The notes: generated by a model from the letters alone, not told the origin. DNA of 64,000 nt from an uncultured Verrucomicrobiae bacterium (GCA_963836755.1 CAWIKF010000002.1:2080001-2144000); one strand, 5' to 3'. Numbered from the stretch's first letter, positions 40,727 through 44,280 are shown. Program-made: numbers and translations.

Positions 40727-40873
40727 TCAGCACGAAGAGATGATCAAGGCCGCCATCATAGACTTTCGCGCCATTCGGTCAATTTCCACCGCGCGCAAAG
40801 AAAACCTTCCCGCAGCGCACTAAAGATTACCGGCTTATACAGAGGCTGCATGCCGTCAAAAACCAAAAGACAT

Positions 40874-41920
<1,047 letters not shown>

Positions 41921-42058
41921 TCATCGCCGCTGCGCAACGCGTTCCTTGTGGCATTGCATGAATGATTTGCGCGATCTCTTCGACTCGCGATCGGACATGA
42001 AATCGGAACGCCCACGACGCGATCTTCCAAACTGCGGGAACGAAAGACGGTCACGATT

Positions 42059-42346
42059 TTTCCTCCGCGAGCTGCATTGCGGGCTCATCGTCGTTCGCGC
42101 CGGCGGCGCGAGGCGCGATTAGTGCGCGGGCGGGCAAGAAATTGCTCCGGGAGCTGTGTTGCGAGCTCGCCGCATCTCGCGCGGCCGGATGGAGATCTGA
42201 TTTTCGCTCATCGCGGCTCGCGCTGCCGGCGCGGGGTGCGATGAGCCCGCAGCGCGGGAAGATTTTGCTCCGCGGCTGGTCTCGGGGGCTCATCAGCCCG
42301 GGCGCTGTCGGCGCGAGCGGCGATGAGCCCGCAATCTCCCATCCGG
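42059..42346 (+). repeat. Degenerate palindromic repeat array on a 41-nt register
   Basis: 41-nt units GCTCATC-N27-GAT(G/T)AG(C/T) at 42083, 42206 and 42288; CTCCG at 42063, 42145 and 42268; all offsets are 82 or 123. Confidence 0.8.
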
Positions 42347-42377
42347 CATTCACGATCTCTTCGCGCTCGCGCAGCGC

Positions 42378-43082
42378 ATGGACGACGGCCTGCGGCTCCA
42401 CGCGCGCTGGCTGAAAATTTTTGACGAAAAGGATGTGGCGCGGTTTCAGGAAAAATTTGGCGCGGCGAAAACGGCGGAGTCCGATTACGCGGTGGCGCGC
42501 TCGCGGCAGTGCGATGCCGCGCGGCGGCAGGAGACGGCGGATGCGGCGCAGACCGAATGGCTCGGGAAGGCGCGGCTCATTTTCATCCTGCGCAAAGGCG
42601 CGCGCTGGTCGGAGGCGTGGGCCGAGACCGGTTTCACGCATCGCTCGACGAGCGTGCCGAAACGCGGCGTCGCGCGGACGGCGCTTTGCGGCGCGGTAGT
42701 GCAATTTTTTACGCGGCGCGCGGATTACGAATATGCGTTTGCAAATGTGACGGCGGAGGCCGGCGCGGCGATTCATGCGGAAATGCTGGCCGCCTCGCAC
42801 GCGTCGCTCACGGCGCAGGCCGAGGCGCGGGCGCAACGGCAGGCGCGCGATGCGGCTGAGCGCGAGCTGCGCCGGGCGATGCGCCTGGTGCGTGTTTTCC
42901 TCGCCTTTACATTCACGACGGACGATGTGCGCTGGGCGAGCTTCGGCTTGAACCAACCGACGAGCACCCGCAGCGCCCTGGAGCCGCGCAGCGTTTCCGC
43001 CCCTTCCCTCGCGGAAGTGATCGCTCTGCCGCCGCGCACGGAGATCGCGGCGGAGTTCGCGCCCACGCAAGCGGTGGCGTGA
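42378..43082 (+). CDS. Ala-rich helical hypothetical protein
   Basis: 234-aa ORF; frame open 17 codons upstream; DDVRWASFGLNQP near the C-terminus. Confidence 0.65.
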   Translation: MDDGLRLHARWLKIFDEKDVARFQEKFGAAKTAESDYAVARSRQCDAARRQETADAAQTEWLGKARLIFILRKGARWSEAWAETGFTHRSTSVPKRGVARTALCGAVVQFFTRRADYEYAFANVTAEAGAAIHAEMLAASHASLTAQAEARAQRQARDAAERELRRAMRLVRVFLAFTFTTDDVRWASFGLNQPTSTRSALEPRSVSAPSLAEVIALPPRTEIAAEFAPTQAVA

Positions 43083-43191
43083 TCACGAAAAATCACCGTT
43101 ACTAAAGTGGCGGCGACCGAGCGCGCGGCCGATGAAACTTTGACTCCACGCGCGCTGTTGATTTTTAATTCGCAGCGCGATTAACTCCGCG

Positions 43192-44280
43192 ATGCCCATC
43201 GGCCAACTCCTCCTCATCGGCGTCCCCGGCCCGGAACTCGATGCGGCCACGGCCGAAACCTTCCGCGCGATCCAGCCCGGCGGCTTCATTTTATTCGGCC
43301 GCAACATCGTCTCGCCCGCGCAACTGCGGAAGCTCATCGACGACCTGCGCGGCTTAAGTGAAATCGAGCCGATCATCACGATCGACCAGGAAGGCGGACG
43401 CGTCTCGCGATTGAAATTGATCGGCCAGGAGCCGCCGAATGCGCAGCAACTGCGTGTTAAAAATGATTTAACACTCATCGAACGCCACGGGCACATCACC
43501 GGCCGGCTGCTCCGGCTCTTCGGCTTCAATCTCGACCTCTGCCCGGTGCTCGACATCTCCTTTGACGACGATGCGGACAATTCCCTCCGCGGCCGCTGCT
43601 GGGGAGGCGATGTCGCGCAGGTCGTGCGCAACGCCAGCGCATTCAATCGCGCGCTCCGCGAGGAAAAGATCGCGAGCTGCGGCAAACATTTTCCCGGCTA
43701 CTCCGCCGCCGCGATCGATGCGCACCACGAGCTGCCGCTCATCACCCGCACACGCGCGGAGCTCGATGCGCACGAGCTCGCAGTCTTTAAACACTTTGTC
43801 GACAAAGTGGACAGCATGATGATCTGCCACGCGCAATATCCGCATCTCGATCCCGCATTTCCCGCATCGCTTTCCCACCGCATCATCACGGAAATCCTGC
43901 GCGGCGAGTTTGGCTACGACGGCCTGGTGATGACCGACGATCTCGACATGGGCGCGATCCTGAACCATTACGATCTCGCCGAAATGCTGCACCTCGCCAT
44001 CGCCGCCGGCAACGATCTCGCGATGATCTGCCATCGGATCGAATGCGCGCGCGATGCGCTGTCGATTTTGAAAACATTACCCACCGCGCAGCTCGACCGC
44101 GCGCTCGCGAGCGTGGCGAAATTCAAGGCGCGCATGACGCCGCCCGATCCATTTTCCGTGGAGGAATTTCGCCGTCGCGATGCTGAGGTGTGGGACCTGC
44201 GCGTCGCCACGCTCGGCGCGGACGCCGCCGCGCAGCGCAGCCCCGAGGATGGCAAGCGCTCGCCGGTGGAGATGTATTGA
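43192..44280 (+). CDS. nagZ: GH3 beta-N-acetylhexosaminidase (NagZ-like)
   Basis: GGFILFGRN, IDQEGGRVSRL, KHFPG..DAH, MTDDLDMGA. Confidence 0.88.
   Translation: MPIGQLLLIGVPGPELDAATAETFRAIQPGGFILFGRNIVSPAQLRKLIDDLRGLSEIEPIITIDQEGGRVSRLKLIGQEPPNAQQLRVKNDLTLIERHGHITGRLLRLFGFNLDLCPVLDISFDDDADNSLRGRCWGGDVAQVVRNASAFNRALREEKIASCGKHFPGYSAAAIDAHHELPLITRTRAELDAHELAVFKHFVDKVDSMMICHAQYPHLDPAFPASLSHRIITEILRGEFGYDGLVMTDDLDMGAILNHYDLAEMLHLAIAAGNDLAMICHRIECARDALSILKTLPTAQLDRALASVAKFKARMTPPDPFSVEEFRRRDAEVWDLRVATLGADAAAQRSPEDGKRSPVEMY

Follow-up and report, generated by a model that had tools for sequence, protein, structure and literature searches.

Known sigma-54 enhancers (UAS, as for NtrC and PilR) consist of 2–5 sites of one conserved sequence that is matched to one activator. 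Bacterial tandem repeats of a different kind, with a constant length of 20–21 nt and a variable sequence, have been published with their function unexplained, and in passages of that work Subirana and Messeguer consider, in connection with them, small RNAs or a DNA-binding protein that polymerises (PMC8161180). PMC3177203 describes the sopC centromere of plasmid F as 12 direct repeats of 43 bp, each containing a 16-bp inverted repeat, which are bound by SopB. In Porphyromonas gingivalis, according to sections of PMC4596501, MITE464/PgRS contains 41-nt tandem direct repeats and BrickBuilt contains 23-nt repeats. A limited literature search found no report linking arrays of the type described below to the gene family that accompanies them or to sigma-54 promoters.

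The locus analyzed here lies in a 64,000-nt stretch of DNA (the window) from the 3.18-Mb, 58% GC genome of an uncultured Verrucomicrobiae bacterium. It consists of a repeat array at 42059..42346 followed by a gene encoding an all-helical protein at 42378..43082 on the + strand. The array resembles the constant-length repeats in that these are, in the passages of PMC8161180, non-coding arrays with a unit fixed at about two helical turns and a sequence that varies within a genome. A genome-wide TRF run similarly yielded 66 merged arrays with periods of 20–21, 41–42, 63 or 84, which are built from many different consensus units and group into small, scattered sequence families. However, the window array has a unit of 41 nt (2 × 20.5), is strongly dyad-symmetric, shows no sub-period of 20/21 nt, and is tied to a specific gene family, a link to a gene or promoter being absent from those passages.

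With sopC, which is a protein-binding platform, the window array shares tandem units of about four helical turns and a dyad in each unit. In contrast to sopC, it is chromosomal and single-copy, its units are far more diverged, it is flanked by an aldo/keto reductase (AKR), a helical protein of no family and a GH3 protein with no partition gene adjacent, and the family gene found no match in plasmid and phage collections. MITE464/PgRS and BrickBuilt are, in the sections of PMC4596501, multi-copy elements with IS5-type terminal inverted repeats, whereas the window element is single-copy and gene-linked. As for sigma-54 enhancers, the arrays of the closest relatives hold the enhancer position, 3–307 nt 5′ of a sigma-54-type promoter, with helically phased sites, but family arrays have 3–10 units and a different sequence at every locus, the genome has just four activators with none adjacent (67 loci), and the window copy is without a sigma-54 promoter.

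The array, its units and its surroundings

Autocorrelation of 42059-42346 peaked at lags of 123, 82 and 41 nt (z 7.05, 6.79 and 5.05), values that were reached at any lag by 0, 0 and 1 of 1000 dinucleotide shuffles, respectively. The 41-nt periodicity that the earlier note had claimed is therefore significant at 41, 82 and 123 nt, and there was no sub-peak at 20–22 nt. TRF reports no array at 42059-42346, the copies being degenerate enough for this program to miss them. A repeat search found four head-to-tail 46-nt copies starting at 42083, 42165, 42206 and 42288, with identities of 76, 63, 100 and 78% and spacings of 82, 41 and 82 nt. The array, at 70% GC, is organised as an 82-nt higher-order repeat plus a single additional 41-nt unit, on an apparent lattice of about 20.5 nt.

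Three of these copies are the 41-nt palindromes that had been proposed, and the motif GCTCATC-N27-GATGAGC was recovered at 42083 (2 mismatches), 42206 (0) and 42288 (0). At up to 2 mismatches, it matched 5 times in the window against 0.39 expected, a count reached by 0 of 100 shuffles. Copy 1 (42083..42123) has the most decayed right arm (GATTAGT), and its hairpin has 17 Watson-Crick and 3 G-T pairs of 24. Copy 2 (42206..42246) has exact outer arms (GCTCATC/GATGAGC) and inner arms GCGCTG/CGGCGC, with 16 Watson-Crick and 3 G-T pairs of 20. Copy 3 (42288..42328) contains an ATG at 42323-42325 in its right arm that is out of frame with the gene, and the degenerate copy at 42165..42205 has 63% identity with copy 2. 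A comparison of the three palindromes shows that their outer arms (7 nt) and inner arms (6 nt) are conserved and that the 7 nt between these are variable and often unpaired, and by reading of the pairing table only one pair has changed on both sides.

An alternate unit (ATTTTTCCTCCGCGAGCTG...) occupies 42056..42082 and has further copies from 42138 and 42261, laid out in the 41-/82-nt register. The second motif of the earlier note, GCTCCG/CCTCCG, is indeed present at offsets of 82 and 123 nt, but its positions had been placed one base off and are really 42062, 42144 and 42267. The view of 42141-42181 as a degenerate copy of 42059-42099 agrees with a manual count of 29 identical positions of 41. 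In contrast, the claim that every offset is a multiple of 41 does not stand: GATTTT occurs at 42055 and 42199, which are 144 nt (3.5 × 41) apart. This 144-nt offset and the two-fold symmetry within each 41-mer point to an underlying lattice of about 20.5 nt in place of a strict 41, although the autocorrelation has no peak at 20–22.

The array copies form three long inverted repeats (repeat search). The repeat search and a count of pairs placed the arms of one of them at 42076..42122 and 42289..42335 (47 nt, 79%). Inside it lies the 34-bp stem between 42076-42109 and 42302-42335 that had been described previously, and the count of 30 Watson-Crick and 4 G-T pairs with no other mismatch was reproduced. 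The additional pairing of 42185-42196 with 42334-42346 amounts to 8 contiguous pairs (42185-92/42339-46) and nothing more, which we estimate to be chance level since, roughly, about two such 8-mer pairings are expected by chance per 300 nt of this composition.

The array is non-coding. A reading as a coding repeat was rejected because the ORF at 42142-42414 shows no coding-like pattern in its GC contents at the three codon positions (0.60/0.71/0.77), and an antisense ORF of 339 aa across the array, which belongs to no family (0.76/0.56/0.71), was likewise rejected. Separately, an imperfect 19-nt direct repeat (CGATCTCTTCG.CTCGCG) at 41972-41989 and 42353-42371 brackets the whole array, with 18 of 19 positions identical and one gap; its right copy lies within the first codons of the gene, and its alignment score was reached by 2 of 300 shuffles.

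Divergent from the array is the AKR gene (40874..41875, - strand). The AKR gene, the array and the helical-protein gene make up a segment of about 2.4 kb (40727..43191) between namZ and nagZ. In both congeners, namZ and nagZ are divergent direct neighbours that are 15–22 nt apart, and the AKR gene, the array and the helical-protein gene are all absent from this syntenic spot. The AKR gene does not travel with the module, as it was found at no other family locus, and no terminal repeats were seen by eye at the boundaries of the segment.

The helical-protein family, its arrays and its promoters

The downstream gene encodes a basic protein of 234 aa, with a GC3 of 0.80 that is coding-like and a conserved C-terminus. 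It had been called an orphan, which is not the case: homologs are present in 8 of the 41 relatives that were sampled, in 32 of the 151 genomes belonging to its own family, often in several copies per genome, and in 7 of 71 genomes of f14, another family of the same order. The family belongs to the Verrucomicrobiota, is built as a helical rod that is usually followed by an FN3 domain, and its HMM matched the window ORF with an E value of 2.8e-76. No family for the 234-aa protein was found in Pfam, PHROG or NCBIfam, and a protein atlas returned only hypothetical Verrucomicrobiota clusters. AlphaFold confidently models a full-length paralog (pLDDT 90.4) as a rod of two packed helices, each about 54 residues long, with an FN3 sandwich after it, and the window protein (pLDDT 88.5) as the rod alone, a helix-only structure without the C-terminal FN3. 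A Foldseek search of the rod against the PDB found nothing better than E 0.31.

The FN3 domain is present in the long forms, and the short form is a conserved subfamily. This short subfamily is basic (pI 9.5–11) and comprises the window protein, its closest homolog P0002 (253 aa), which is 53% identical to it and shares its C-terminal tail, as well as P0003 and the f14 proteins; the nearest relatives of the window protein are thus found outside its own family. Basic proteins occur in the short subfamily only, the pI of the long forms being mostly 4.7–7. Most of the long-form proteins encoded behind clean arrays are acidic or neutral, which speaks against the idea that the module protein coats its own array.

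Downstream of the stop codon of the helical-protein gene, at 43125-43170, a GC-rich imperfect stem (AGCGCGCGG ... CCACGCGCGCT) followed by TTGATTTTT was seen by eye. This is a possible terminator, with a 17-nt loop that is longer than the scanner accepts.

Upstream regions of homologs of the protein were evaluated for the same register by autocorrelation at lags of 12–100 in a set of 39 distinct loci with at least 400 nt of upstream sequence, after dropping 4 loci with less than 400 nt and 5 duplicate proteins. The best lag was 41 in 13 loci, 42 in 14 and 82–84 in 5, which gives 32 of 39 loci, and at least half of the positions matched in 29 of those 32. The window locus has both features of these loci, a 41/42-nt period (lags 41, 82 and 123) and a family gene directly 3′ of the array. 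Clean 41-nt arrays also precede both full-length paralogs in the genome. Neither of these two arrays is related in sequence to the other or to the window array, and their copies are 88% and 97% identical versus 63–78% in the window array. The earlier suggestion that unit length is constrained despite sequence divergence is thus borne out by the 41/42-nt period, with unrelated sequences, at 32 of 39 homolog loci and both full-length paralogs.

Only the period is conserved across the family arrays. Of 28 arrays, only 3 showed significant dyad symmetry, and by the standards of the family the window array stands out as palindromic. Intrinsic curvature from phased A/T tracts was rejected as a family feature, there being no enrichment of such tracts (0.82 per 41 nt inside versus 0.95 outside in 28 arrays). 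The window array is of the same 41/42-bp-period class as the arrays preceding most helical(-FN3) family members. Since 5 of 7 short-subfamily relatives were at noise level for arrays, it could nevertheless be a local invention and not inherited.

Sigma-54-type sites were scored as matches of at least 9/11 to TGGCAC-N5-TTGCW within 250 nt of the ATG, against a background of 0.02 such sites per 250 nt. In the paralogs and in many relatives, TGGCAC-N5-YTGCT is found between the array and the ATG. Matches were found at 13 of 39 loci, namely for 12 of 16 proteins of at least 320 aa and 1 of 23 shorter ones, and in the short subfamily at 6 of 7 loci; the 304-316-aa subfamily has arrays and lacks the motif (the 1 of 23 shorter proteins). 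Where array and site could both be defined, the array was wholly 5′ of the sigma-54 site at 8 of 9 loci and separated from it by 3–307 nt. Genome-wide, only the two paralog arrays out of the 66 have a site scoring 10/11 or better within 300 nt, and therefore the arrays cannot be sigma-54 enhancers in general.

The genome encodes rpoN and four enhancer-binding proteins, and no enhancer-binding-protein core was found in 67 family loci. There was no conserved upstream regulator, the neighbours being heterogeneous (74 of 105 candidate ORFs scanned): an integrase at 2 loci, an XRE-type HTH protein at 3, a LuxR-type protein at 2, and otherwise unrelated housekeeping genes. At the window locus, the best sigma-54 score was 7/11 and no sigma-70-like site was found in 41876-42377, so a sigma-54 or sigma-70 promoter between array and gene was rejected.

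Several further observations were made at related loci. In a 306-aa subfamily, nine loci (L009, L016, L023, L039, L051, L052, L055, L057 and L059) have a conserved same-strand downstream ORF with collagen-like G-X-Y runs, and an XRE-type HTH gene is located 5′ of the array in 5 loci of this subfamily, the HTH being confirmed for L009, L023 and L048. In G024, three different 42-nt arrays (L009, L023 and L024) share the sub-motif GGAGTCTCC and differ in the rest of the unit; the shared GGAGTCTCC may point to one reader that is common to the arrays of this genome. A tyrosine recombinase gene (Phage_integrase + Phage_int_SAM_4) at L021 2693-3538 on the - strand, corresponding to G000:C2 ~765,050-765,900, ends just ahead of the cleanest 41-nt array in the same orientation, and an integrase is upstream also of a second family locus, L007.

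Three shorter ORFs of G000, at C2:1250079-1250714, 2209759-2210547 and 2228703-2229689, match the last helix and FN3 of the family HMM with E values of 3.5e-7 to 8e-3, and each has a 21/42-nt array 190–340 nt upstream. At G000:C2:1315842-1316096, there is a gene-less sibling of the 41-nt array of a paralog (C2:764695-765011) that also contains the first bases following that array. Its surroundings have no sigma-54 site and no family gene nearby, and the ORF downstream of it looks, from its N-terminal sequence, like thymidylate synthase.

The junction between array and gene

The similarity between copies 2 and 3 stops at a CAAT word at 42332..42335, and homology to the gene family begins at 42333, in frame and 5′ of the ATG at 42378, where NLPSGIHDLFALAQR aligns to NTLPSGLLDLLQLARP of P0002. 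A TGA is located at 42324-42326, and the only nearby ATG, at 42323 in the right arm of palindrome 3, is not in the reading frame of the gene. As the array ends at 42346 and the homology starts at 42333, the promoter and leader otherwise found between array and ATG are absent from the window locus. As judged from this alignment, the normal start, leader and promoter are missing, with the last repeat unit joined to approximately codon 3–4. The gene may still be expressed from the ATG at 42378.

Two contigs from soil metagenomes cover this region. Contig X1 has 0 differences over 42199-42351. Contig X3 (depth 2.6), which could be chimeric, has 3 differences in 200 flanking nt and 71 unmatched letters between 42335 and 42332, so that it contains 75 extra nt at the junction with a CAAT word on each side. 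The difference between X3 and the window is a possible natural 75-nt deletion or insertion polymorphism.

Interpretation of the array

Because the same 41/42-base arrays front most relatives of the gene, they likely act on DNA and not as folded RNA. The interpretation we favor, to which we assign a probability of about 0.5, is that the array is a DNA-level, helically phased platform belonging to a cassette and situated 5′ of its promoter, and that the window copy is uncoupled and decaying. In this model, the 41-bp spacing (about four helical turns, 2 × 20.5) would place equivalent sites on one face of the duplex, and a putative DNA-binding factor would read the phased units and modulate promoter use. 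A lineage-specific loss of about 75 nt, delimited by two CAAT words, would have taken the promoter, leader and start codon out of the window copy and joined its last unit to the gene at codon 3 or 4. With its promoter gone, the array would have been left to drift, which may account for copies that are 63–78% alike versus 88–97% in the paralog arrays. Of the candidates offered by the earlier note, phased protein sites fit best, and the structured leader or RNA is not supported, 8 of 9 arrays in relatives being located outside the mRNA that the sigma-54-like promoter would yield.

The alternative that fares best, although we consider it unlikely, is that the arrays are a neutral satellite without a regulatory role, produced, for example by slippage or repeated fixed-length duplications, as the cassette is duplicated or moved, with the window array being simply old and decaying. 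Such an origin is consistent with the conservation of length alone across arrays, to the exclusion of sequence, dyads and A/T tracts, with the gene-less sibling at C2:1315842-1316096, with the scattering of small array sequence families over the genome, with the occurrence of the module in unrelated contexts and its absence here from the congeners, and with the fact that the window copies are just 63–78% alike. However, it leaves unexplained why a period of 41/42 (or 21) nt recurs at 32 of 39 loci with unrelated sequences, and why the arrays are consistently placed 5′ of the promoter.

It is decidedly less probable that the array arose by local duplication of the 5′ end of the gene, with the ATG at 42323 as the ancestral start, the 82-nt units as tandem and inverted duplicates of the leader and first codons, and a hairpin that would occlude the start on the mRNA. 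The codons ATG AGC CCG CAA at this start read MSPQ, compared to MSQN or MAQN in relatives, which begin MSQNTLPSG, MAQNTLPSG or MPQNTLPSG. Furthermore, in a by-eye alignment a relative-like start minus 5 nt gives the window sequence, ATGAGCCCGCA is common to copies 2 and 3 beyond the palindrome, and the start region has its exact reverse complement in the left arm, at 42076-42090. Nevertheless, the ATG at 42323 and the gene are in different frames, and the 75 extra nt of contig X3, being a multiple of three, would not restore the frame. No promoter was found upstream of the array, and the 41-nt register matches that of the family upstream arrays, which lie outside the mRNA.

The earlier note had read the constant length and the one-strand wobble pairs as selection on a single-stranded structure, such as a structured leader acting in cis, an ncRNA or a processed repeat RNA, in which local hairpins would alternate with a long-range fold. 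This is, in our estimation, improbable. The + strand has a minimum free energy of -193.6 kcal/mol (z -5.08 versus shuffles), all 4 of the 4 mismatches in the 34-bp stem are G-U on this strand, and passages of PMC8161180 discuss the constant-length repeats of Bacillus as possibly transcribed. However, the - strand (-168.4 kcal/mol) is equally exceptional with a z of -4.79, and the energy gap between the strands was also seen in shuffles. The G-U excess on the + strand matches the expectation for a G+T-rich array (38% G, 19% T), with an expected G-T share of transition-type mismatches of 0.66, such that P was 0.19 for 4 of 4 in the long stem and 0.18 for 7 or more of 8 in the three local hairpins. 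A strand-specific RNA signal was therefore rejected on the strand z-scores and the composition-corrected G-U counts, and the proposed selection on a single-stranded RNA is not supported.

The long stem itself is explained by the fact that any repeated palindrome yields one automatically, and the conserved arms that flank a variable, often unpaired middle, with one two-sided pair change among three copies, likewise argue against a conserved RNA fold. A search of Rfam at E values of up to 1 over 41000-43500 found no match in the array and only a sub-threshold snoRNA model outside it. Since the family arrays are 5′ of the sigma-54-like promoter in 8 of 9 loci, they lie outside the mRNA that would be made from that promoter, and this placement, predicted from motif matches, is what weighs most heavily against a structured mRNA leader.

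Membership in a dispersed REP/BIME or MITE family, suggested by the palindromic, GC-rich, intergenic units and the 47-nt inverted repeats flanking the array, is hardly credible, since BLAST of the element against the genome returned self matches only, the exact palindrome motif occurs nowhere else in the genome, a profile of the three copies run with nhmmer --max had its next best match at E 0.02, and an element that is single-copy in 3.18 Mb is therefore not such a family. Taken together, the periodicity is significant, arrays are present beside homologs of the gene, and no scattered REP or MITE family was found, all three outcomes running counter to those that the earlier note had named as refuting its claim.

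A bolder form of the favored DNA-level platform, which we put forward as speculation and regard as quite doubtful, is that nothing but the geometry of these cis elements is read: their spacing would be gauged by a factor that forms rods or filaments with a repeat of about 14 nm, and in this way the promoters of a mobile cassette, sigma-54 promoters among them, would be controlled. The basis for this idea is that the four-turn spacing is kept while sequence, dyads and A/T tracts are free, and that no dedicated regulator gene travels along. The reader could be the module's own basic, FN3-less helical rod as encoded here. If this were true, the window would contain the dyad-symmetric extreme of such an element and a natural promoter-deletion allele.

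The window copy alone is a degenerate example, and better-preserved arrays are present in the same genome. Two ideas are weakened by the present analysis, that of the repeats as structured RNA and that of the adjacent protein coating its own array. The locus ties a constant-length array to a defined gene family and, by way of the relatives, to predicted sigma-54 promoters. The window copy adds a strongly palindromic 41-nt variant to these arrays, as well as evidence that they decay when uncoupled from the promoter.
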